In this document: positions 1 through 13,443 of the stretch, piece by piece | How positions within the stretch are numbered: the stretch's first letter is position 1 | How the letters are laid out: every line of letters begins with the position of its first letter | Assembly (NCBI GenBank): GCA_016199245.1 | Contig: JACQHC010000046.1 | Span: forward strand, 1-58,926 | DNA length: 58,926 nucleotides | From: Gemmatimonadota bacterium | Lineage (GTDB): Bacteria; Gemmatimonadota; Gemmatimonadetes; Gemmatimonadales; GWC2-71-9 | Reading direction: 5' to 3' | Notes under the pieces: model-generated | Database searches by the model: none | What the model saw: only the letters and a program-made list of their open reading frames with translations | Told to the model about the DNA's origin: nothing | Made by a program: the position numbers and the translations under genes

Positions 1-2860
1 TCGTTGAGGCCGAGCTTCTCGCCGCGTTGGTCCGCCGCCCGGATGTCCTTGGCCAGCTCGATGAGCTCCTGAATCACCTGCGCGGCCTCGATGGCGCGGT
101 TTTGGTAGCGGTGAATGGCGTGCTCCAGCATCTCGAGGAACGACTTGGCCTGCACCACGTTCTTCCGCCGCCGGGTCTTGATCTCGCCATCCAGCAGCTT
201 CCGCAGCAGCTCTACGGCCAGGTTCCGCTGCGGCATGCCCCGCACCTCGGCCAGGAACTCGTCTGACAGAATCGAGATGTCGGGCTTGGCCAGGCCCGCC
301 GCGGCGAAAATGTCTATCACGCCCTCCGGAGCCACGGCCCGCGATACGATCTGCCGGACCGCGAGGTCCAGCTCTTCCTGAGTCTTGCCGTTGGCCGGCG
401 AGCGTTTCACCAACACTGCCGCCACGGCCTGGAAGAAGGCGACGTCGTCCCGAATTTCCCATGCGTTTTCATGTGGCACGGCGAGGGCAAACGCCTGGGA
501 CAGCTCACGCACGGCGGTCACGAAACGGCTCTTGCCGTCTTCCTGCGCCAGGATGTGCTCCTGCGCACCGGGCAACACGGACACGCGGTCCTGCGCCTTG
601 GGGCTGGTCCAGCGGGACCAGTCGAACCCGTGGAACAGGCCTGAGCACACCTCGTGCTTCTCCAGCAGGAGGGCCACGGCCTCATCCTGATCAATGGCGG
701 TGCGACCGGTCCCGCCGCTCTCGGTGTAGGTCGCCAGAGCTTGCTTCAGCTCATGGGCCAGGCCCAGGTAGTCCACCACCAGGCCGCCCGGCTTGTCGCG
801 GAAGACGCGGTTCACTCGCGCGATGGCCTGCATGAGGCCGTGTCCGCGCATCGGCTTGTCCACGTACATGGTGTGGAGGCTCGGCGCGTCAAAGCCGGTG
901 AGCCACATGTCGTGCACCAGCACGATCTGAAGGGGGTCGCCGGCGTCGCGGGAGCGGTCCGCCAGATCGTCTCGGCGGTCCTTGTTGCGGATGTGCTGTT
1001 GCCAGCCCGGGGAATCGGAGGCCGAGCCGGTCATGACGACCTTGATGATGCTCTTGCTGTCTTCCGTGTCATGCCAGCGGGGCTTTAGGGCAACGATCTC
1101 GTTGTACAGCTCCACACATATCCGCCGGCTCATGCAGACCACCAGGGCCTTGCCTGTCATCGCTTCCAGCCGGCGCTCGAAGTGGTCCACCAAGTCCCGG
1201 GCGATGAGCTTCACCCGCTTCTCGGCCCCGACCACGGCCTCGAGCTGGGCCCACTTGGTCTTGAGTTTCTCGCGGCGCTCGACCTCTTCGCCCTCAGTCA
1301 GGTCCTCAAAGTCGGCGTCCACGCGCGGGCGCTCGGCCTGGTCCAGCGCGAGCTTGGCCAGCCGCCCCTCGTAGTAGATGGGTACGGTCGCCCGGTCCTC
1401 GACCGCGCGCTGGATGTCGTAGATGGAGATGTAGTCGCCAAAAACCGCGCGGGTATTGGCGTCCGCTTTCTCGATGGGAGTGCCGGTGAACCCGATGAAC
1501 GAGGCGTTGGGCAGCGCGTCCCGCATGTGCCGGGCAAAGCCGTCAATGAAGTCGTACTGGCTCCGGTGCGCCTCGTCGGCAATGACCACGATGTTCCGCC
1601 GGTCCGACAGGACGGGGTGGCGGTCGCCCTTCTCCTCTGGGAAGAACTTCTGGATGGTGGTGAACACCACGCCGCCGGCTTCCACGGAGAGCTTGGCCCG
1701 GAGATCCGCCCGGCTTTCGGCCTGAACCGGCGGCTGGCGCAGCAGGTCCCGGCAGCGCGAGAAGGTGCCGAAGAGCTGGCCGTCGAGGTCGTTTCGGTCG
1801 GTGAGCAGGACGAGCGTGGGGTTTTGCATGGCGGGCTCGCGGATGATCCGTCCCGCGTAGAACGCCATGGTCAGGCTCTTGCCCGACCCTTGCGTGTGCC
1901 AGATCACGCCCACGCGGCGGTCGCCGGGGGCACCGCCGGCCGCTCCGCTCTCGTAGCGGCCCGCGGGCTGCTCCTTACCGGCGCCCGCGGTCACGGCTCG
2001 GCCCGTGGCCCGCAGCGTCTCGCCCACCGCGTGGTTCACCGCGTGGAACTGATGGTAGCCCGCCATCTTCTTGGCGGGTTTCCCGCTCTCGTCCTCAAAC
2101 ACGATGAAGTCCCGCAGGAGTTGCAGCAGGCGCCGGTGGTGGAACACGCCTTCCAGCAGCACTTCGAGCTGCGGGAGCCGCGTGTCCGCGACCGTCTCCC
2201 CGGTCTTGGTGCGCCAGGGCTTGAACCATTCCCGGCCGGCGGTCAGGGTGCCGATCCGCGCCTCCACGCCGTCGGAGACCACCAGGAGCTGGTTGAAGGC
2301 AAAGAGGGTGGGTAGCTCAGCTCTGTAGGTCTGGAGCTGCTGGAAGGCGGTCCAGACGGTGGCGTTCTCGTCGGCGGGGTTCTTCAGCTCGATCACCCCA
2401 ACGGGCAGGCCGTTCACGAAGAGCACCACGTCCGGCCGCCGAGTGTGCTTGTTCTCGGTGACGGTGAACTGGTTCACGGCTAGCCAGTCGTTGTTCGCGG
2501 GGTTCTCGAAATCAATCACTTGGGCTTGGGCGCCCCGGATGAACCCGTCAGGCGTACGGTGCTCGACGGTCGCACCATCCACCAGCAAACGGTGGAGCGT
2601 GTGATTACGGATTTCTAAGGAGGGGCCTTCGGGACGAGTGAGCTTGCGGAATGCGTCGTCGAGAGCTTCAACCGGAAGGTCGGGGTTGAGCCGAGCGAGG
2701 GCGTCGCGCAGGCGCTGCTCCAGGAAGACCTGCCTGTAGTTGAGGCGCTCCGCGGCCAGTTCGCCGGGGGCGATCTCGGGGCCGTGCGCGACGCTCCAGC
2801 CCAGACCTGCTAGCCACTGGGCGGCGGCGTCTTCGACAACGGACTCGGTAAATACGCTCA
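1..2860 (-). CDS. hsdR: Type I restriction enzyme R subunit (HsdR); the C-terminal end lies beyond the window start
   Basis: Not in the ORF track because the frame is open at the window edge. The reverse frame starts at ATG 2860 ([24 protein letters not shown]...) and no stop-delimited minus ORF is reported across 1600-2860. My translation shows SF2 motif I ([12 protein letters not shown]), a DEAH box ([12 protein letters not shown]), GFTGTP, and the HsdR-type C-terminal region ([22 protein letters not shown]). Confidence 0.9.
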
Positions 2861-2937
2861 TTGTAGCGTTGAAATGGTTACCTCACATCGGCCGGGTCCG
2901 ATAGAGTTCCCACCCAGGCAAGACCCGGGAGCCGGCC

Positions 2938-3442: not shown

Positions 3443-3790
3443 ATGCGCGATATGAACCCGGAAGAACTCGCGATGCTTCCCTGGTCCATCGTCGGCCCGC
3501 GGCCGGTGCAGGACCGGGAGGGGAACCGTCACTTCGAGATGCGCGTCAAGGAGTTGCCGGACTTCCTCGTGTCGGGCAAGACCGAGGCGGAAGTGCTGTG
3601 GGGATTCAAACCCGCGCTGGTAGCCTTTCTCAAGTCCTTTCTGCCCGGCCAGCTACCACCGCTGCCCGAGGGCCCGCCGGCCCGTTGGGTGCTCTTGGCG
3701 CCGCCGGGACCGGGCACTGGAGCCCACCTGGCAGGTGACCACGCTACAACGGGTGCGACACCGGTCTTCGCGTCGGTTGTGGTCGAGTAG
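3443..3790 (+). CDS. HicB-like (UPF0150-fold) antitoxin-like protein, with no adjacent HicA
   Basis: GGAGG lies 8 nt upstream of ATG 3443. The core FEMRVKELPDFLVSGKTEAEVLWGFKPALVAFL matches the HicB N-domain pattern (vpelPG..a.G.T.eEa......al). The longer track ORF from 3272 overlaps the previous gene and was trimmed. Confidence 0.5.
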   Translation: MRDMNPEELAMLPWSIVGPRPVQDREGNRHFEMRVKELPDFLVSGKTEAEVLWGFKPALVAFLKSFLPGQLPPLPEGPPARWVLLAPPGPGTGAHLAGDHATTGATPVFASVVVE

Positions 3791-3855: not shown

Positions 3856-4563
3856 ATGCCCTCTGCCCGGAGTCGCACGGCCGCTCATTCCGACCCTCGC
3901 AACCGACCAGCCTATCCCCTCGCGGAGGCGGCTCGATACGTCAAGCTGGCCCCCGCCACTCTCCGATCGTGGATCGTGGGAAGATCGTACCCGGCCGGTG
4001 GTGGCGTGCGGCGCTTTTCGCCGCTCATCCGACCGGCCGGCCGACCGCCACCGGTGCTTTCGTTCTGGAACCTGATCGAGGCTCACGTACTGCGCGCCCT
4101 GCGTACGGAACACGGCGTGTCGGTCAGGGACGTCCGAAGGGCACTGCGGTACGCGGAGGGGGAGCTCCGAGTCGAGCGCCTCTTGCTGCGACAGGAACTC
4201 TGCTCCCACGGCGGCGAACTCTTCCTCGAGCGTTACGGGGACCTGATCAGCCTGTCGGCCTCCGGTCAGATCGCCATGAAGCGCCTGCTGCAGGACCACC
4301 TGAAGCGGGTGGACTGGGATGAGTGGCAGTTCCCGGTACGACTGTACCCGTTCCCCACCAGCGAGGCCATCACCCCCGATAGGCCGATCGCTATCGACCC
4401 CACGATCGCGTTTGGGCGGCCGGTTCTGGTAAAGCGAGGTGTTACCACTGAGGTCATCGCGGAGCGCATTGACGTGGGGGAGTCCGTCGAGGAGCTGGCG
4501 GCCGACTACGACGTGGAGCCGGCGGACATCGAGCAGGCGGTGGTGTACGAGCGGGCCGGGTGA
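3856..4563 (+). CDS. DUF433-type antitoxin with an N-terminal HTH (VapB45-like)
   Basis: N-terminal HTH-like segment (YPLAEAARYVKLAPATLRSWI). C-terminal DUF433-like segment (GRPVLVKRGVTTEVIAERIDVGESVEELAADYDVEPADIEQAVVYE). A GTGA start/stop overlap links it to the next gene. Confidence 0.75.
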   Translation: MPSARSRTAAHSDPRNRPAYPLAEAARYVKLAPATLRSWIVGRSYPAGGGVRRFSPLIRPAGRPPPVLSFWNLIEAHVLRALRTEHGVSVRDVRRALRYAEGELRVERLLLRQELCSHGGELFLERYGDLISLSASGQIAMKRLLQDHLKRVDWDEWQFPVRLYPFPTSEAITPDRPIAIDPTIAFGRPVLVKRGVTTEVIAERIDVGESVEELAADYDVEPADIEQAVVYERAG

Positions 4564-4970
4564 GCCGGGTCTTCTTCACCGACAGAGACCTTGGCAAGAA
4601 GTTCCCGCAGATCCTGCGTGAGGCTGGGCTGACGGTTGAGCGGCACGCGGATCATTTCGCGCATGACTGCCCGGACGAGGAATGGCTACAGGTTGTGGGC
4701 GAGCGGGCTTGGGTCGCGATCACCCACGATTCCCGGATTCGATATAAGCCGAACGAACTCGAGGCCGTAGTCCGTCACCGCGTTGCCCTCCTCGTCGTGG
4801 TTGGACGGGCGAGCTATCCCGCGCTCGCCGCGGCGTTCGTTTCGGCACTCCCTCGGATTGAGTCATTTCTGGAGAGCCACGACGCGCCGTTTATCGCCAA
4901 GGTTTATCGTCCAACTCCGGCCGACATGCGGCGAAACGCCCCCGGCCGGGTTGAGCTCTGGTACCCGTAA
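4560..4970 (+). CDS. PIN-like toxin partner of DUF433 (DUF5615 / VapC45-like)
   Basis: 4-nt overlap (GTGA) with the DUF433 gene. Size and N-terminus (MSRVFFTDRDLGKKFPQILREAGLTVERH...WVAITHDSRI) fit the DUF5615/PIN-like family that pairs with DUF433. Confidence 0.65.
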   Translation: MSRVFFTDRDLGKKFPQILREAGLTVERHADHFAHDCPDEEWLQVVGERAWVAITHDSRIRYKPNELEAVVRHRVALLVVVGRASYPALAAAFVSALPRIESFLESHDAPFIAKVYRPTPADMRRNAPGRVELWYP

Positions 4971-5275: not shown

Positions 5276-6688
5276 TCAATTGTGGCGGAGGATCGGTGTG
5301 GACGAACAGATGGTGAGAGCCTTCGACCCACGCGTCATGCCAACGTAGAGATTGTTGGCATCCAGAGAATCGGCGTCGAGAATCACCACAGCCTCCGCTT
5401 CCAATCCCTTGAGCAATAGGGTGCTCCCAACGGCCCGTTTCGGTAACGGTCTGCCCACCAGCCGATTCTGCTCACGCATGCGAATGGCAGCTTCCTCGAA
5501 AGACAGCCCGTCCGTGTTCTCGCACAGCCGGAGTGCCTTGATGCACGCCCTCAGAACGGCAGGCCTGTGGGTTCGTACCCCGGTTTCCTTTCCGATTTCG
5601 ACCAGCAGATCCACGGCATTCCGATAGGAAGGTGCCTTAACGAATGCGAGTGCAGCCCCCTCCACAGCCGATGGCACCTTGCGTGCCGAGCCGCGCGCCA
5701 ACAACTCCACACGCTGGATCAGGTCGGCGCTCCCCACGTTGGTCATGACACTTTGGGCGAACCTGACTAGCCGGCCGAACGCGTGTTCCGCATCGAGGTT
5801 GAAGTTGCGCGCAAACGACACCAAGTCTCTTAGGTCCACTGCTTCAACCGTGACGGCCCCAGGCGTCTGGCTGGCAAACTGGCGCTGCTTCTCCGGGCTG
5901 GTACTGTCGGCAATGATCAATACGCACGCATCGCCCGTCGGCGCCCGTACACGCGCTGCCCGCAAGCGTCTGCGATGGTCATCCGTTCCGTCGAGCTCGA
6001 CCCAGCGCACAGCTGGAGGTGCTGTCCGGAGATCGAGGGGCTCGCCCCGCAACAGCTTGCCGCGTGCATCAAGCAGCCAGCGCCCCAGCTCTTCGGCGTT
6101 CGCATTGATCCATCGCCACTGCGTTTCCAATTCCCCCGCCAGGGGGAAGCGCCCACATACTTGGCGGTCCCAGTCTGGGAGAGGGTCCCCGAATCCGAAG
6201 ATCGCCTGCATGGGATCGCCGAGCACACACGTTGGCAACGTCTCTGCGGCATATGTCACAAGGGCGTGCTGACGGATTGAGCAGTCTTGATACTCATCCA
6301 CTATGAGCCGTGCATAGGTCGCGGCAAGCACGTCGTTTATGTGTCCTGCCTTCAATAGCTTGGCCGCAGCTGCGCGGATCCTCGGGTAGTCGGTACGGGG
6401 CGATGCCAGGTCCAAGATCTTGGGATCGTGGCCGCTGCGCCCCGGAAACGTTGAAATAAGGCGCCTCGCCCACCCGTCGATCGTTGACAGTCGGTGTGCA
6501 CTTGAGGGAACGCCTGCCCGGCCAAGTCGCCCCCGAAGAGCCACGACACCAGCATTCGTGTGCGTAAGCACAAGAACCAGCTTCTTGTTCGCGTACCGAG
6601 TGAGGGCCTCAGCAATGAGTTGTGTCTTCCCGCAGCCCGCAGGTGCGGTTACGGTGCCTCGGTCGATCTCCAGGAGATCAACTGTCAT
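5276..6688 (-). CDS. gajB: UvrD/PcrA-like SF1 helicase, Gabija GajB-like
   Basis: Walker A APAGCGKTQLIAEAL, DEYQDCS, LGDPMQAIF, and C-terminal VGMTRGSKALTICS. The start was chosen at ATG 6688 (MTVDLLEIDRG) because it forms an ATGA overlap with the stop of the frameshifted OLD gene. Confidence 0.8.
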   Translation of the reverse strand: MTVDLLEIDRGTVTAPAGCGKTQLIAEALTRYANKKLVLVLTHTNAGVVALRGRLGRAGVPSSAHRLSTIDGWARRLISTFPGRSGHDPKILDLASPRTDYPRIRAAAAKLLKAGHINDVLAATYARLIVDEYQDCSIRQHALVTYAAETLPTCVLGDPMQAIFGFGDPLPDWDRQVCGRFPLAGELETQWRWINANAEELGRWLLDARGKLLRGEPLDLRTAPPAVRWVELDGTDDHRRRLRAARVRAPTGDACVLIIADSTSPEKQRQFASQTPGAVTVEAVDLRDLVSFARNFNLDAEHAFGRLVRFAQSVMTNVGSADLIQRVELLARGSARKVPSAVEGAALAFVKAPSYRNAVDLLVEIGKETGVRTHRPAVLRACIKALRLCENTDGLSFEEAAIRMREQNRLVGRPLPKRAVGSTLLLKGLEAEAVVILDADSLDANNLYVGMTRGSKALTICSSTPILRHN

Positions 6689-8419
6689 TCGGCTGCATAG
6701 ACGGCCCAAGTGAAGACGGCGTCAACCAAATTCCTGAAACCTGCGTCGGCCTTCTCCACGTCGGGACCGATAATGTCGCGCGCCACATCTTCCATCCATG
6801 TTACGGACTTGAACCACCCCGCCTTCCTGGTCCGGGACGCTCGGCCTAGCACACGGCGACTATGAGCTGTCACACCATCCATCAGTGCCTCGGTTCGTAT
6901 TGCGGTCAAGTTCTTGGCGTTCTGTGACGCCGACTTGATGTGGTCGTTGATGAGTTCCTCTCCATGTAATTGGACTGCACGCTCCACGAGTCTGCCCACG
7001 GCCTCATCGCTCAGGCTCAGGAACAGTTCGTCCCTCGAGTGTGCGCCCCTGGCGCCATGCAATGACCTTGCCACCGCTGGCAGCAAAGTCGGCCTCGACA
7101 ACTGCGGTTGGGCTCGTGTCGTCATCGCGAAGGATTGCGACACGATACCCAAGAGAGTGGAAGGCAGCCGCACGGGCGAACGGCCGGTCGGGCTCACCAC
7201 CGCCGGCATCGACGAGAGCCGAACCGACCGCACTGAGAGCGCTTTCGCCCCGGGCCGCCCGGAACTGATCAAGGCCGCGCAACAGGCCGATCTCAGTGGC
7301 GCCTTCGCAGACAATGACTGCGGGAGCCAGAAAGGCTTCGGGATAGAGTCGGACGGTGCTCTGCATTTCGTCTGTCGTGGCGACAGGCAGCAGTTGATGC
7401 CTATTGGGTCCCGCTCGGGTAACGAACAACTGGCTGGCGGACAGTTCCCGCACCGCAACGGGGGAGTGCGTCGTCATGAACACCTGCAGCGGTGGAGCGT
7501 CCTCTTTGGCGCCCAGAAACCCTAACAAGCGCAGAATCCGGTGTGGTTCAAGTCCGTGCTCCAACTCATCAATCAATAGGATCGTGGACTTTCTGGCAGC
7601 CTTCCGCTGAAGGCCAGCGACCAGTAGTCGCGTTGAACCAAGGCCCAGTCCACGGAGAGGTATGCCCGCCTCATCGTGCAGGGAGATCGTCCCTCGACTG
7701 AACGACACCGAATGCGCGTCCAGCATTGCCTTCACAATCGCTCCCACCGGGATACCAAGTTCCTTGGCGGTGGTCGCCACAATCTCAAGTGTCTCGCCGA
7801 GTTGACCCTGCGCCTCATCCCCAAAGGCAGCCCGCGCCTCTCGAGCTGCCCTTGCCAGCGCTGCTGACGCATCGGCCTTCTCGTCGGCGATGCGGTTCAG
7901 TACTGAGCCCTGGCGCCACCCGAGGTGGTAGTCAGCCATCACACCAATCCGGGTCGGTGCGAGCCTAACGCGATCGGCCCAACTCAAGAACCGAACCTGT
8001 CCGGCGCCGGCTGCCCGGTCCGATACCAAGGACCAGGCCGGTTCGAGATCGCTGCCAACCGTCAGCCTGATGGTCAGCACCGTCTCAGCACCGCTCTCGG
8101 GTTCATCCTCAATCTTGCCGGACTCAGACTCGAACCCCCGCACATACATACCATATGCATCGAGGTTCTTGAGTCCCTCATCGAGTTCGCCGATGGTCAA
8201 CGAGATGCTAATAGGTGATTCGACAGCCAGTTGGTGAAAATCCACGTCTGTGAACTGGACGTTGCCTCGTGCTCCAAGGCAGAGGTCAATGGCGTCGAGG
8301 ATAGACGATTTTCCGCTGTCGCAGGGGCCGATCAGGCAGTTGAGGCCAGGCGTCGGGTACCACTCCAGGTCGTTGATCCCTCGGAAGCGCCGGATTTCGA
8401 CCTTTCGGATCCTGGCCAT
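6685..8419 (-). pseudogene. gajA: OLD-family ATPase/Toprim nuclease, Gabija GajA-like, interrupted by a +1 frameshift near 7032-7036
   Basis: Track ORFs 7004..8449 and 6685..7458 are two frames of one gene. It has Walker A (GPCDSGKSSILDAI), a Toprim E (VIVCEGATEIGLL) and DxD (ILRDDD). Frame A reads ...WRQGRTLEGRTVPEPER*. Removing one G from the minus-strand gag-g-gac gives ...RTLEDELFLSLSDEAVGRLVERAV... through to stop 6685. The repaired length is about 578 aa. Confidence 0.8.
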
Positions 8420-9642
8420 CAGACGTTGTCCGACATCGGGCCTCGCCAACCACCGACCCTAAGCTCCCCACTGAGGAGGCGGGGCAATAGTGCGTCGCGC
8501 AGGGCGGCGAGGGTGCGGGATTCGCGCTCGTTCTGCGCAACCTTCGCCAGAAGAGGACCCGACGCCCGAGAAAACCGGCCGAACACTTCATCACTGGGAC
8601 GGACGATCGGCGTCGCCGCAACGACCTCTGGCCGAACTGCGGGGTAGGCAGCGCCATCGGCCAGATGAGCGAGTGTGTCGATGTTGTCCGCCGCCGTGCC
8701 TGCGAGGTAAACGAACTCCGCGTACTGGGCTGCCTGTGGTCGAAGCACTGCAAAGCCCGTGCTGCCCGTCAGTCCGCTTTCCGAGATGAAGGCGTACGAG
8801 CCGTTCCCAGGGCGCACGGTTCCGACGATCGTGTCGGCCGGCCGCAGCACCCTCTGTGCTCGGCTTGGCGCATCAGCAGCCTCATACGAAGTGACCGCCT
8901 CGATTCGCCCCCACTTCGTGTTCGAGAGATCGACGTAGTTGAGTTCGGCAGGGCGCGTCTCCTTCGTCCACACCTCCGGATTCAGAATCCCCAGGTCCGC
9001 AAGCGTTCCCACCCCCCACCCCGCCAGAATCTCCCCCAACTCCGATTCCTCAAACCGATCCGGGAACAGGTCGGCAATCTCCTTGGGCAACCCCGAATCC
9101 GGCCCCTCGACCTTCGCCCGAACCGGATCGAAATCCACAAACCACGACTTGAAAATCGCCCGCGCCATCGCCTCCAGCGTCTCACTTATCCGCCGGTTCA
9201 GCTCGATCTTATCGTCCAGCGTGCTGAGGACCTGGGCGATGGCACGCTGTTCGGGGGGCTCCGGAATCCGCACGGGCAACCCGTAGATGTAGTTCCGATT
9301 CAATGAAGGCTGAGCACTTCCGGAATTGTAGGCCGCAAGGTCCAGGGTGCCGAGCCAGTAGTAGCAGAACCTCGGGTCGTTACCCATGAAATCCGTTACA
9401 TACATGCAGGTGTTCAGCGGCCAGTAGTCGTCGGTTATGAAGGAGACCACGCCGATCGACGCACCGCTCCGTCCCACCGTCACGCCGGGCCCTGTCGCAC
9501 GGGCTTGGTTGTGCCAACCCGTAACGCCGAATGACCCCAGTATCGGAACCGGGCCTGCCTGCCGCTCCTTGTCTGGGAGGTCGTGCCCTCGCTGAAGGCG
9601 GACGACTTCACCCAACGTCGTTTCCCGCCACTCACCCGCCAT
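8419..9642 (-). CDS. hsdS: Type I R-M specificity subunit (HsdS), two target-recognition domains
   Basis: Typical TRD opening (EWRETTLGEVVRLQRGHDLP), central conserved helix (PPEQRAIAQVLSTLDDKIELNRRISETLEAMARAIFKSWFVDFDP) and C-terminal helix (ESRTLAALRDALLPRLLSGEL). ATG 9642 is preferred over the track's TTG 9648. Its stop overlaps the gajA start (TGATG). Confidence 0.85.
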   Translation of the reverse strand: MAGEWRETTLGEVVRLQRGHDLPDKERQAGPVPILGSFGVTGWHNQARATGPGVTVGRSGASIGVVSFITDDYWPLNTCMYVTDFMGNDPRFCYYWLGTLDLAAYNSGSAQPSLNRNYIYGLPVRIPEPPEQRAIAQVLSTLDDKIELNRRISETLEAMARAIFKSWFVDFDPVRAKVEGPDSGLPKEIADLFPDRFEESELGEILAGWGVGTLADLGILNPEVWTKETRPAELNYVDLSNTKWGRIEAVTSYEAADAPSRAQRVLRPADTIVGTVRPGNGSYAFISESGLTGSTGFAVLRPQAAQYAEFVYLAGTAADNIDTLAHLADGAAYPAVRPEVVAATPIVRPSDEVFGRFSRASGPLLAKVAQNERESRTLAALRDALLPRLLSGELRVGGWRGPMSDNV

Positions 9643-9745
9643 ATCCAAGCCCCTTTAAGTTGGCCCCGATGGCGGCATCGAGTTTGCGCTCCTCGACCAT
9701 TGGCTCGCGCAGCGTCCCAGTGACAGCTGAATCCTCACCTCGCAC
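9632..9745 (-). pseudogene. Fossil 3' end of a second hsdM (last ~25-35 codons only)
   Basis: The apparent spacer between ORF6N and hsdS translates on the minus strand as ...GEDSAVTGTLREPMVEERKLDAAIGANLKGLGYGG*. The stop TGA (9634-9632) overlaps the hsdS ATG in the usual hsdM/hsdS manner. It parallels the C-terminus ...[21 protein letters not shown] of the ORF at 10325..11284. Confidence 0.6.
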
Positions 9746-9780: not shown

Positions 9781-10335
9781 TCAATTGCGCTCCTCGGCTC
9801 CTCTGAACCCGATCCTCCGCTGCGGGGCCTCGTCGGGAGGCGGGGCCAGCTGCCGGATGGCCTGAATGATCGCTTTGAGATGCTTATCGTGCGCTCCGAC
9901 GCGCCGCTCCAGCTCCGCGAGCCGCGCGGCCAGCTCGGCGTGCGTCACCGCAAGCCGCCGCAGCCGTACAAAGGCCCGCACGACGAACACGCTCATCTCG
10001 ACCGCCCTCGGGCTGCTCAGCACCGATGCGGCCATGACCGCCCCATGCTCGGTAAACGCCCACGGAAGAACCGGCGAGAACCTGAGCCGGCGGAGGTGGT
10101 CACAATCTGTGACCACCTTGTCCCGCTCGGTCTTCGTGAGCCGGAACCGGAAGTCCGGCGGAAAGCGGTCGACATTGCGTCTGACCGCTTGATTGAACGC
10201 CTTCGTCGAGACGCCGTAGATCGACGCCAGATCAGCATCCAGCAATACGTTCTCGCCTCGGACCGTCAGAACCCGCGACTCGACCGCCGTGGGCGAGAGC
10301 GGCGTAGGTAGCCGGCCTTGCCGGTCAGTCGGCAT
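9781..10335 (-). CDS. ORF6N-domain (KilA-N-like) DNA-binding protein
   Basis: The core [47 protein letters not shown]...[33 protein letters not shown] is the ORF6N signature. This family commonly sits between hsdM and hsdS. Start ATG 10335 overlaps the upstream stop by 11 nt. Confidence 0.75.
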
Positions 10336-11284
10336 ATCCGAGCGCCCTGAGATTCTCCGCGATCGCCGCATCCAGCCTGGTGGCTTCCTCTCGTTGCGCC
10401 TTCAGCGTCGCGGTCAGCCGCTTCATCTTCTCCTCGAACGGCTCGCCATCATCCTCCTGGGCCTCGGCGCCGACGTACCGACCCGGCGTGAGCACGTGGC
10501 CGTGCTTCCGAATCTCTTCGAGCGTCGCAGACTTGCAGAAGCCGGCCACGTCGGCGTACACCCCGGCCTCCTTCTCGCCACGCCAGGCGTGGTACGTCGC
10601 CGCGACACGAGCGATATCCCCGTCCGTCAGCTCCCGGTGCGTGCGGTCCACCAGCACCCCGAGCTTGCGGGCGTCAATGAACAGCACCTGGCCCCGGCGG
10701 TCCCCTTCGACCTCGGTGCACAGGCGCGCGATGTCGCCGCTGACGCTCGTACCGGAGGCGAGATCGAACACTCCGCTCGCGATCACACGCTCCTCTCCGA
10801 CCGCGCCAGACGTGATCGCCACGCGGGCGATCAGACGCCCGAACTTGTTCACCGCCAAGTAGGGACGCGTGGACCGCACGGCCAGGCCGGTGGTGGACAC
10901 CGCCAATTCGGGAGCAACGTCGGATGGGGCGATGTCGGGGGGCAGAAGCCCGAAGTCACGTCGGAATCCGCGGGTCCGGACGGCCTGGAGCAGCTCCTGA
11001 ACCACGGCGCTCCCCACGACGGCCATCTCCGCTTCGGCGTGACGCTCCAGCGCCCCCAGGGAGAACGCCACAGTAACCGTCCGTCGCCCGCGGAAGTGCC
11101 GGGCCTCGTCCCGTGGGAGAGTGAGCACTAACAGGTGCGGCTCCGGTCGCTGAACCCCGGCACCTACCAGCCGGGCGTACCGTTCGATGATCCGCGGGAG
11201 CCTCGGGTCCACCAACGACTCGGCGTCCGGCGGGTCGAACGCATGCTCCTCGACGGGCATGGCCTGCACTTCGCGTCTCGTCAT
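10325..11284 (-). CDS. HsdM-tail protein: an ~195-aa region without methyltransferase motifs joined to a bona fide HsdM C-terminal region
   Basis: The C-terminal ~120 aa ([15 protein letters not shown]...[42 protein letters not shown]...[17 protein letters not shown]) match the HsdM C-terminus. No DPxCGSGG or NPP[FY] motif and no HsdM_N-like N-terminus are present. An ATGA overlap links it to the SNF2 gene stop. Confidence 0.7.
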
Positions 11285-13443
11285 GAAGCGGCACCGACCA
11301 GCGGAGCCTCCGCGTCGGCTTCGATGTCCACGAGGGTCATCGGCAGGCGATCCGCTTGCACGCGCAGCACGATTGCACGGCCCCGGCCCGTGACGCCAGT
11401 GATGCGGTACAGGGGACCGTAGCCGGGATCTGATCCCGCACGTTCCACGGCGCCGACCTCCATTGCCTCGAGGATCTCCGACACATGCAGCTCGAGCTGG
11501 TGCCGTTTACCCTCAACGCCTCTTGCGAGGGCGAGGTGGGAGGTGCCGTATGCCAGCCGTACGCGGCCGGGAACAGAGAGGTGACGAAACTCCCGCTCGA
11601 GTCTGCCCGCGTTATCCTCTGCGGCGACTTCTGAGGCGAGTTGCTCCTGCGCCAGACCCGCTTCGCGGCTGGCCAGTATCTCATTGCCGATGTTCTCGAC
11701 CTGCCGCTCGAACGCCTCGTCTGATTCCGCACTGACCCAGGCATCGGTGAGGCGCTTCTCGAGCGTGTCGGCGCCGCCGAACTCCCCCAGGATCGTATCC
11801 AGCTCTCCGACCACAAGCTGAAACAGCTGGATCTTCTGATCCAAGAGTCGCAAAATCTGCATCTCGATGGTGTCCCGCGCTGCGAGGTTGATGATGGACA
11901 CCTCACGCTGCTGGCCGATCCGGTGCACGCGCCCGATGCGCTGCTCGATGATCATCGGATTCCAGGGAAGCTCGTAGTTGACCAACTGGTGACAGAATTG
12001 GAGGTTGAGGCCCTCACTCCCGATCCGAGTGGCCAGCAGGACACCCGAAGACTCCTGGCGAAATCGAGCGAGGCTCCTGCTCCGCTCCGCCCGTGACAGA
12101 GAACCAGCGAACGAGATCGCTGGTCTTCCGACGTCTTCAGCTGCCTTCTCGAGCAACGCGAGTGTTGGGAGGTGTTCAGTGAACACGATGACTCGATCGC
12201 CGTTGCCGGACAAGAACCGGCAGAACACCTCGAGCTTCGCCTGTGTCGTGACCGACCGGGCCCTGTCGGCGAGCTGGCGTCCTCGGATCCGATACTCCGG
12301 CAACAGAAGTTCCCCTTGTGAAAGGGCTTCTAGCGACCCTCCCAGCGCCTGTGCCGACGAGGTGAGACGCTGCAGGAGGCGCATCAACTCCAAGGTGAAC
12401 ATGCCCCGCCCCCTGCGGCGTCTTCGGCGAGCGCGGTCCTCCGTCTCTTCCCTCTCAGACGGCTGATAAAGGCCATGCCGGTACAGGTCACGAAGGAACG
12501 CAACGGTTTCTCGATACAGCACCGCCTCGTCGCGCGTGAGCGATATGTCGGGATGGGTCGGTTTCCGAGGCGGCAGGTTGATCACCGGGGCCACGCTGGC
12601 CCGGCGAGTCCGAACCATCACCTGGCTCGTCAGCTCCCGGAGGGCCTCGGGACTCCTGGCACGGCGAGGGTCTCCCCGAACGACGTGTTCGCGCTGGAAC
12701 TGGGCCCATGTTCCGAGCTGCCCCGGCCGCAGGAGGGTGATGAGGTTGTACAGCTCCCGCAGGTTGTTTTGCAGCGGTGTGGCCGTGAGCAGCAGGATGA
12801 AGTTCCGATCCACCTGCTTCAGGAACTTGTATCGCTCGGACACGTGATTCTTGACCTTGTGAGCCTCATCGACGATCACCAGGTCCCAGCGGTGTTGCAG
12901 GATGGCCGCGGCGTGTCGATCACCGCATGCCCGGTCGTACGAAACGATGGCCCGCTCGACATGATGCCAGTCAGCGGGTTCGGTCGGGGTCGCGAACTCT
13001 TCGAAGAACTTGCTGTCGAGCTCGGCCTGCCATTGTTCGACCAGTGAAGCAGGGGTGAGGATCAACACTCGTCGAGCGAGCCCGCGGACACCGAGTTCCT
13101 TGAGGATGATCCCGGCCTCGATCGTCTTCCCGAGACCAACCTCGTCCGCGAGAATCGCTCTGCCCTTGAAATTCCGCAGTACGTGCAGCGCAACATCAAT
13201 CTGATGCGGAAGCTCTTTGATGGTGTTGCAGTCGAGGGTGACGAGGCGGTCGACGCCAGGGTTCAGCGCGATCTCTTCGAGCTCTCGGCGGAGACGAAAC
13301 CACTCCCACGAGGAACTTCCCTGTGCCAGTCCCTGGCTGAAAAGCTCCAGCGACGCGTTGTCTACATCCCACGCTGGTGCGCTCACGTCAGTGCGGCTTC
13401 CCTTTCTCTCGCAGGCCCGGGGCGTCCCACGCACTTCCGGCAA
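11281..13443 (-). CDS. SNF2-family (RapA/HepA-like) DEAD/DEAH helicase with an uncharacterised ~150-aa C-terminal extension
   Basis: Motif [15 protein letters not shown], motif [40 protein letters not shown], and C-lobe [30 protein letters not shown]. The exact start is uncertain, and an internal GTG is possible. Confidence 0.85.

Follow-up and report, generated by a model that had tools for sequence, protein, structure and literature searches.

Does an SNF2-family ATPase gene that is translationally coupled to a gene ending in an HsdM C terminus represent a new defense architecture, or is it the result of an accidental gene fusion? This question is raised by a locus in the 58,926-bp window analyzed here, which is an entire contig of a Gemmatimonadetes metagenome-assembled genome (MAG). 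On its minus strand, the SNF2 ATPase gene is followed by a 319-amino-acid (aa) open reading frame (ORF; 10325..11284), the last part of which derives from HsdM of type I restriction-modification (R-M) systems. A sequence-only reading of this DNA had offered two explanations for the 319-aa ORF: (i) a deletion or recombination scar in which the 3' end of hsdM became attached to an SNF2-partner gene; or (ii) an HsdM-derived adaptor that docks an SNF2 translocase onto the specificity subunit HsdS. Here, we conclude that the 319-aa ORF is very likely a one-off chimera that arose by in-frame deletion or illegitimate recombination and not a new SNF2/HsdS system.

Composition of the 319-aa ORF

The 319-aa ORF consists of two parts with separate homologies, an HsdM tail and the N-terminal domain of an SNF2-partner protein. 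The 3' part (10325..10702, minus strand) encodes residues 195-319, corresponds to the last ~23% of hsdM, and comprises the final part of the catalytic-domain model together with the C-terminal helical tail. The Pfam model N6_Mtase covers residues 178-279 only (profile positions 220-311 of 311; 8.5e-15), and the PADLOC model MTase_I matches residues 195-313 (1.8e-37). Using BLASTP, residues 195-318 are 81% identical to the HsdM fragment P0029, and residues 454-539 of the 544 residues in the solved HsdM 3KHK align with ORF residues 194-281. Residues 195-319 are 81-84% identical to HsdM C termini. Moreover, the tail is 77-85% identical to thousands of HsdM sequences (7849 matches at E <= 1e-10, with ~80% identity across phyla), and it is changed at 1 of 59 highly conserved columns, the normal range in the family being 0-2. 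The sequence-only reading had assigned the last ~120 aa to an HsdM C terminus, and these analyses bear this out for 125 residues.

While the 319-aa ORF shares with HsdM the C-terminal tail and the location upstream of hsdS, it lacks HsdM_N, the S-adenosylmethionine (AdoMet) motif I, and the catalytic NPPF. Regular-expression scans of the whole ORF detected no NPP[FYW], [DNS]PP[FYWH], or AdoMet-type G-x-G motif, and HsdM_N (PF12161) was not matched in a Pfam scan, in agreement with the sequence-only reading. The score with the hsdM model TIGR00497 is 16.3 bits compared with a cutoff of 242.75 bits. With HsdM_N, motif I, and NPPF missing and the score below the cutoff, the 319-aa ORF is not an HsdM. 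An intact AdoMet-binding or catalytic core that had escaped notice was not found by profile search either, N6_Mtase being matched only from profile position 220 of 311. We also considered that the N-terminal part might be a degenerate HsdM N terminus and rejected this idea because neither HsdM_N nor N6_Mtase matches before residue 178 and the region is homologous to another protein family.

This family is that of the SNF2 partners. The 5' part of the ORF (10703..11284, minus strand; residues 1-194) encodes the N-terminal alpha/beta domain of a partner protein, as supported by BLASTP to P0009 and tblastn to eight loci. A query with residues 1-195 returned only the protein itself and two fragments; with one of these fragments (P0003) as the query, we recovered a partner family without a Pfam domain, the complete members of which have 386-398 aa. 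Residues 15-193 align to residues ~23-199 of these proteins at ~40-43% identity (43% for residues 23-199 of P0009 in BLASTP). With the N-terminal halves of P0004-P0009 and the partners encoded in the eight loci considered together, identity is 40-55% (tblastn E-values from 3e-14, in L013, which is cut by the contig end, to 8e-47); identity to the closest genomic relatives is ~54%. The N-terminal part has the AEMAVVGS and GRLLARV blocks of the family's N-terminal alpha/beta domain, and all 14 invariant columns of the family alignment (A2) are retained. In this region, the sequence-only reading had seen "ghost" methyltransferase motifs. However, these strings belong to the partner family and not to a degenerate methyltransferase: AFDPPDAES aligns to the conserved partner block AFTPPEHDPL, the string near residue 147 aligns to another conserved block, GRLLARVVIRAGAA, and GLLPPDI aligns to a variable stretch of the family.

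Past the N-terminal domain, full-length partners have a long coiled coil followed by a C terminus that is beta-rich and zinc-ribbon-like, with CxxC...CxxC. This half is conserved in all full-length relatives, and it is in its place that the HsdM tail stands in the window ORF. Partner lengths range overall from ~390 to 733 aa, with 386-398 aa in P0004, P0005, and P0007-P0009. The closest genomic relatives are longer, the partner of L007 having 564 aa and that of L010 having 733 aa, and many representatives have ~680-730 aa. Full-length partners match nothing significantly in Pfam, NCBIfam, or PADLOC, and the profile of the family has no match among PDB sequences even at E = 10.

The SNF2 gene upstream of the chimera (11281..13443, minus strand) is intact and encodes a 720-aa ATPase with a RapA-like core (Pfam SNF2-rel_dom, 9.3e-34; Helicase_C, 5.2e-22), in which four SNF2 motifs are located at residues 98, 187, 217, and 501. 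Its TGA stop codon (11283-11281) overlaps the ATG of the 319-aa ORF (11284-11282) as ATGA, confirming the overlap reported in the sequence-only reading. The SNF2 gene opens a conserved module of two genes, SNF2 and partner. Using tblastn, we found the partner directly downstream of the SNF2 gene in all eight orthologous loci, i.e., L001 and seven loci from Gemmatimonadota genomes. The SNF2 proteins of these loci are 56-68% identical to that of the window; the six full-length ones (L001, L007, L008, L010, L011, and L013) are 60-65% identical over residues ~20-720, whereas contig ends truncate the remaining two. L007 shares the 4-nucleotide (nt) overlap, with the SNF2 gene ending at 3696 and the partner gene starting at 3693. 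Given the conserved gene order and the overlap shared with L007, the coupling is ancestral to the SNF2/partner module and unrelated to hsdM.

In an exhaustive profile search, we identified 214 representatives of the partner family at E <= 1e-3. Among the 146 representatives that were retrieved, 14 also match the SNF2 protein; at least 11 of these are distant relatives with both parts in one chain of 1,065-3,219 aa, where the SNF2 core is immediately followed by the partner domain from residue ~620-760 onward. This fusion implies a functional and probably also physical link between SNF2 and partner proteins. Elsewhere, the neighbors of SNF2/partner genes include genes for GGDEF, Uma2, a beta-lactamase-like protein, and an outer-membrane barrel as well as metabolic genes, and these genomic contexts are not defense islands. 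One Gemmatimonadota MAG (M3-44_Bin_147) has three SNF2/partner copies on three contigs (L009, L010, and L012).

The fusion junction and its origin

The fusion junction maps to codons G194/D195 (10700..10705, minus strand), where partner homology ends and hsdM homology begins. The switch is sharp: it occurs between residues 193 and 195, i.e., at approximately nt 10702/10703, with the partner alignments stopping at nt 10700-10706 and the DNA homology to the hsdM genes of L002-L006 (79-81%) beginning at nt 10702. On the HsdM side, the break falls inside the Pfam catalytic-domain model (approximately position 220 of 311) and not at a domain border. The remaining halves of both genes are missing from the window. 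The C-terminal half of the partner has no tblastn match in the whole contig better than E = 0.14, and the N-terminal part of HsdM (the first ~77%), the site of DPCCGSSG and NPPF in intact relatives, has none better than E = 0.39. Thus, a displacement of the 5' part of hsdM within the contig was rejected. An insertion of the island into the partner gene, which would place the partner 3' half at the far end, gained no support, tblastn having detected no trace of this half in the 59 kb of a contig that ends inside hsdR.

The fusion was found once. The cluster of the 319-aa protein has one member on one contig; an HsdM tail is present in none of the 146 retrieved partner-family representatives and in none of the eight orthologous SNF2/partner loci; and in metagenome contigs of the Joint Genome Institute (JGI), we detected neither the junction peptide, searched for with a degenerate pattern (0 matches), nor close relatives of the N-terminal part. 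The longer partner family and the sharp junction support the first explanation, a scar that joins an SNF2-partner gene with the 3' end of hsdM. By contrast, the idea of a conserved HsdS-docking adaptor is not supported: the N-terminal part comes from a much longer partner and the fusion was found in this contig only, an outcome that the sequence-only reading had itself named as refuting the adaptor.

We suggest that a single event brought together two gene pieces, ~580 nt from the 5' end of the gene for the SNF2 partner and ~380 nt from the 3' end of hsdM, the hsdM piece coming from a horizontally acquired defense island with type I R-M and Gabija genes. The event would have removed the C-terminal half of the partner and ~77% of hsdM, with HsdM_N, the AdoMet site, and the catalytic NPPF loop among the lost parts. 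The prior chance of such a join being in frame is ~1/3. Neither half looks decayed, suggesting that the event was recent. Translation of the chimera probably continues, given that it has kept the ancestral ATGA coupling.

Several observations weigh against this explanation. The fusion is in frame, both halves look undecayed, and the sequence is compatible with ongoing selection. On the partner side, the break lies at a predicted domain boundary, i.e., at the end of a helix (residues 189-199) in the P0009 model that is followed by a low-confidence linker, which argues that the retained N-terminal domain is probably complete. Furthermore, the contig ends inside hsdR, placing the far side of the island out of view for the lost partner 3' half, and the fusion is known from the assembled contig sequence.

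The last point bears on the possibility that no cell carries the ORF and that the SNF2/partner locus was wrongly joined to the type I R-M island at nt ~10702 during assembly. We consider such an assembly chimera improbable, although it deserves some weight. The window spans one complete contig of a MAG; the hsdM lineage is widespread and highly conserved and, therefore, prone to assembly breaks and mis-joins; many relatives are on contigs of ~1 kb; and the guanine-plus-cytosine (GC) content at 5-10 kb (0.60-0.64) is below that of the flanking regions. However, a lower GC content would be expected of gajA, gajB, and hsdS just as much if the island had been acquired horizontally. Moreover, the junction sequence is not repeated elsewhere in the contig, GC at third codon positions (GC3) is alike on both sides of the junction (0.825 in the N-terminal part and 0.849 in the tail), and the join is in frame.

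If the fusion is real, the chimera could also have been put to new use. According to this alternative, the expressed protein would dock onto HsdS by the HsdM C-terminal helix and, thereby, tether the partner N-terminal domain and the SNF2 translocase to it. The retained ATGA coupling to SNF2, the preserved C-terminal helical segment of the tail with no sign of decay, an hsdS gene that looks intact, and a seemingly complete partner N-terminal domain, which in distant relatives is fused to SNF2, are all compatible with such a neofunctional adaptor. Nevertheless, we find it very improbable: the architecture was found only once in the collections searched, the break within the catalytic-domain model orphans a strand of the methyltransferase fold, the coiled-coil/zinc-ribbon half that is conserved in full-length partners is lost, and the neighboring gajA is broken as well. 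Equally far-fetched in our view is that the accidental chimera, expressed by way of the inherited ATGA coupling and binding the conserved helices of HsdS with its HsdM C-terminal helix and the SNF2 motor with its partner N-terminal domain, has been retained as a working, newly arisen, non-methylating, sequence-targeted SNF2 translocase, in which case domain shuffling would have been caught in the act. Rather, the chimera would be a by-product and not a designed adaptor, and no sign of a function was seen; it could still bind HsdS by accident.

The island and other hsdM relics

The sequence-only reading had placed the pair at the head of a type I R-M operon. This description stands insofar as ORF6N and hsdS genes lie downstream, as the Pfam and PADLOC assignments agree, and it falls short insofar as Gabija genes and a DUF433/PIN_10 pair precede hsdR. 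On the minus strand, the gene order is SNF2, 319-aa ORF, ORF6N, hsdS, gajA, and gajB, with hsdR located beyond the plus-strand DUF433/PIN_10 pair. Around the SNF2 gene lie a sodium:solute symporter gene, the hsdM remnant, ORF6N, and hsdS. We would, therefore, call the locus the edge of a composite defense island rather than the head of a type I R-M operon.

The ORF6N-domain gene (9781..10335, minus strand; Pfam ORF6N, 8.8e-25; PADLOC candidate PDC-S05, 2.7e-47) lies between the hsdM remnant and hsdS, and its likely start codon, the ATG at 10335, overlaps the stop codon of the 319-aa ORF (ATGCCGACTGA; 10325-10335). No paper connecting ORF6N with type I restriction was found in a literature search. 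hsdS (8419..9642, minus strand) is apparently intact with two target-recognition domains (Methylase_S, 3.5e-15; PADLOC Specificity_I, 9.2e-86, residues 3-399 against profile positions 1-393 of 405). Two adjacent Gabija genes follow. gajA (6685..8449, minus strand) matches PADLOC GajA (PDLC04168; 1.7e-204) up to profile position 461 of 570 and is frameshifted near 7035, with the next 115 aa, in another frame, matching profile positions 460-567 (5.8e-23); this frameshift could be that of a real pseudogene or a sequencing or assembly indel. gajB (5276..6709, minus strand) encodes the Gabija UvrD-like helicase (PADLOC GajB, 1.2e-187; Pfam UvrD-helicase). A DUF433/HTH_66 gene and a PIN_10 gene (3856..4970, plus strand; DUF433, 3.7e-13; PIN_10, 3.9e-19) form a toxin-antitoxin-like pair that separates Gabija from hsdR and is encoded on the opposite strand. 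Finally, hsdR (1..2861, minus strand) is a 960-codon open frame cut by the contig end (HSDR_N, 5.5e-49; SWI2_SNF2, 3.1e-79; T1RH-like_C, 1.4e-90; PADLOC REase_I, 7e-296, profile positions 4-935 of 1029), and the far boundary of the defense island is, thus, hidden.

A second, diverged hsdM 3'-end relic (9632..9724, minus strand; ending in ...KLDAAIGANLKGLGYGG*) was identified in tblastn searches with the HsdM C termini of L004 and L006, which matched it at 9724-9635 with E-values of 1.5e-4 and 7.6e-6, respectively. The stop codon of this relic overlaps the ATG of hsdS at 9642 (ATGGCGGGTGA) in the same way as the stop codon of the chimera overlaps the ATG of ORF6N. The presence of two hsdM 3' ends, each with a stop codon overlapping the next ATG, supports that the hsdM/hsdS junction has been rearranged before. 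Along with the frameshifted gajA, the relic is further damage in an island that appears to be decaying, which fits the scar explanation. An hsdM 3' end borders the ORF6N cassette on either side, as would result from insertion of the cassette by recombination at that sequence. This arrangement suggests that recombination at hsdM 3' ends may move genes into the hsdM-hsdS junction.

hsdM tail relics are commonplace; in this very widespread, ~80%-conserved lineage, hsdM is often called as two ORFs or has been reduced to a tail downstream of hsdR. The best 120 database matches to the tail are all short (119-235 aa). Short HsdM-tail ORFs include a 162-aa remnant downstream of hsdR in L002 and L003 (L002, 8001-8489), while in L004-L006 hsdM is split by a frameshift into two ORFs (L004, 7033-8663; L006, 6943-8567). 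We rejected the idea of a stand-alone family of short HsdM-tail proteins because the three cases inspected on long contigs are frameshift-split hsdM genes or remnants. In degraded type I R-M loci, as in the window, all that is left of hsdM is its 3' end, still upstream of hsdS. Unlike these remnants, the one in the window has been joined in frame with the 5' half of a gene unrelated to it and, thereby, inherits the start codon of the partner and the translational coupling to SNF2.

Implications for the type I system and the SNF2/partner module

Type I enzymes have an M2S1 methyltransferase core, and HsdR is recruited through M2S1. The type I system of the window likely can no longer methylate, and, given the dependence of HsdR on M2S1, it would probably not restrict either, provided that no other part of the genome encodes a compatible HsdM. 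For its part, the SNF2 module would lack the coiled-coil/zinc-ribbon half of its partner.

The SNF2 core is shared with known defense proteins, i.e., DrmD of DISARM, BrxHI of BREX, ZorD of Zorya, and DpdE, the PADLOC and NCBIfam models of which match with E-values of 1e-21 to 1e-73. However, the cutoffs are not reached (DrmD_b, 244.5 compared with 950; DpdE, 197.7 compared with 500; ZorD, 75 compared with 1500), and no drm, brx, zor, or dpd companion genes are present beside the SNF2 gene of the window. Because the scores are far below the cutoffs and the companions are absent, we rejected an assignment to any of these systems.

The closest solved structure to the SNF2 core is that of RapA from Escherichia coli (5.6e-41; SNF2 residues 78-541 against RapA residues 155-632). 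With the NCBIfam RapA model NF003426, the score is 211.4 bits compared with a cutoff of 576 bits, and the best stretch covers residues 44-253 only. The partner was modeled with AlphaFold at moderate quality (mean predicted local distance difference test [pLDDT] score, 69); in a Foldseek search of the PDB, the top three matches of this model are all RapA and weak (E-values of 3.7e-3 to 5.7e-2 and template modeling scores of 0.20-0.23). In the fused relatives, the partner domain follows the SNF2 core at a position that, by inference from position, corresponds roughly to the RapA C-terminal region. The window system differs from RapA in being split into two genes and in having an extra coiled coil and zinc ribbon, both contributed by the partner. 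As a lead only, these similarities suggest that the SNF2/partner pair may be a split RapA-like motor with extra C-terminal modules.

In itself, the chimera is of little weight, being an ordinary, one-off gene-fusion scar. Its value lies in illustrating that a single deletion in a defense island can mimic a plausible open "new architecture" and that such cases are quickly settled by asking, for each half, if it is part of a longer conserved protein. Moreover, the conserved SNF2/partner module, for which neither Pfam nor NCBIfam has a model, could merit a family description.

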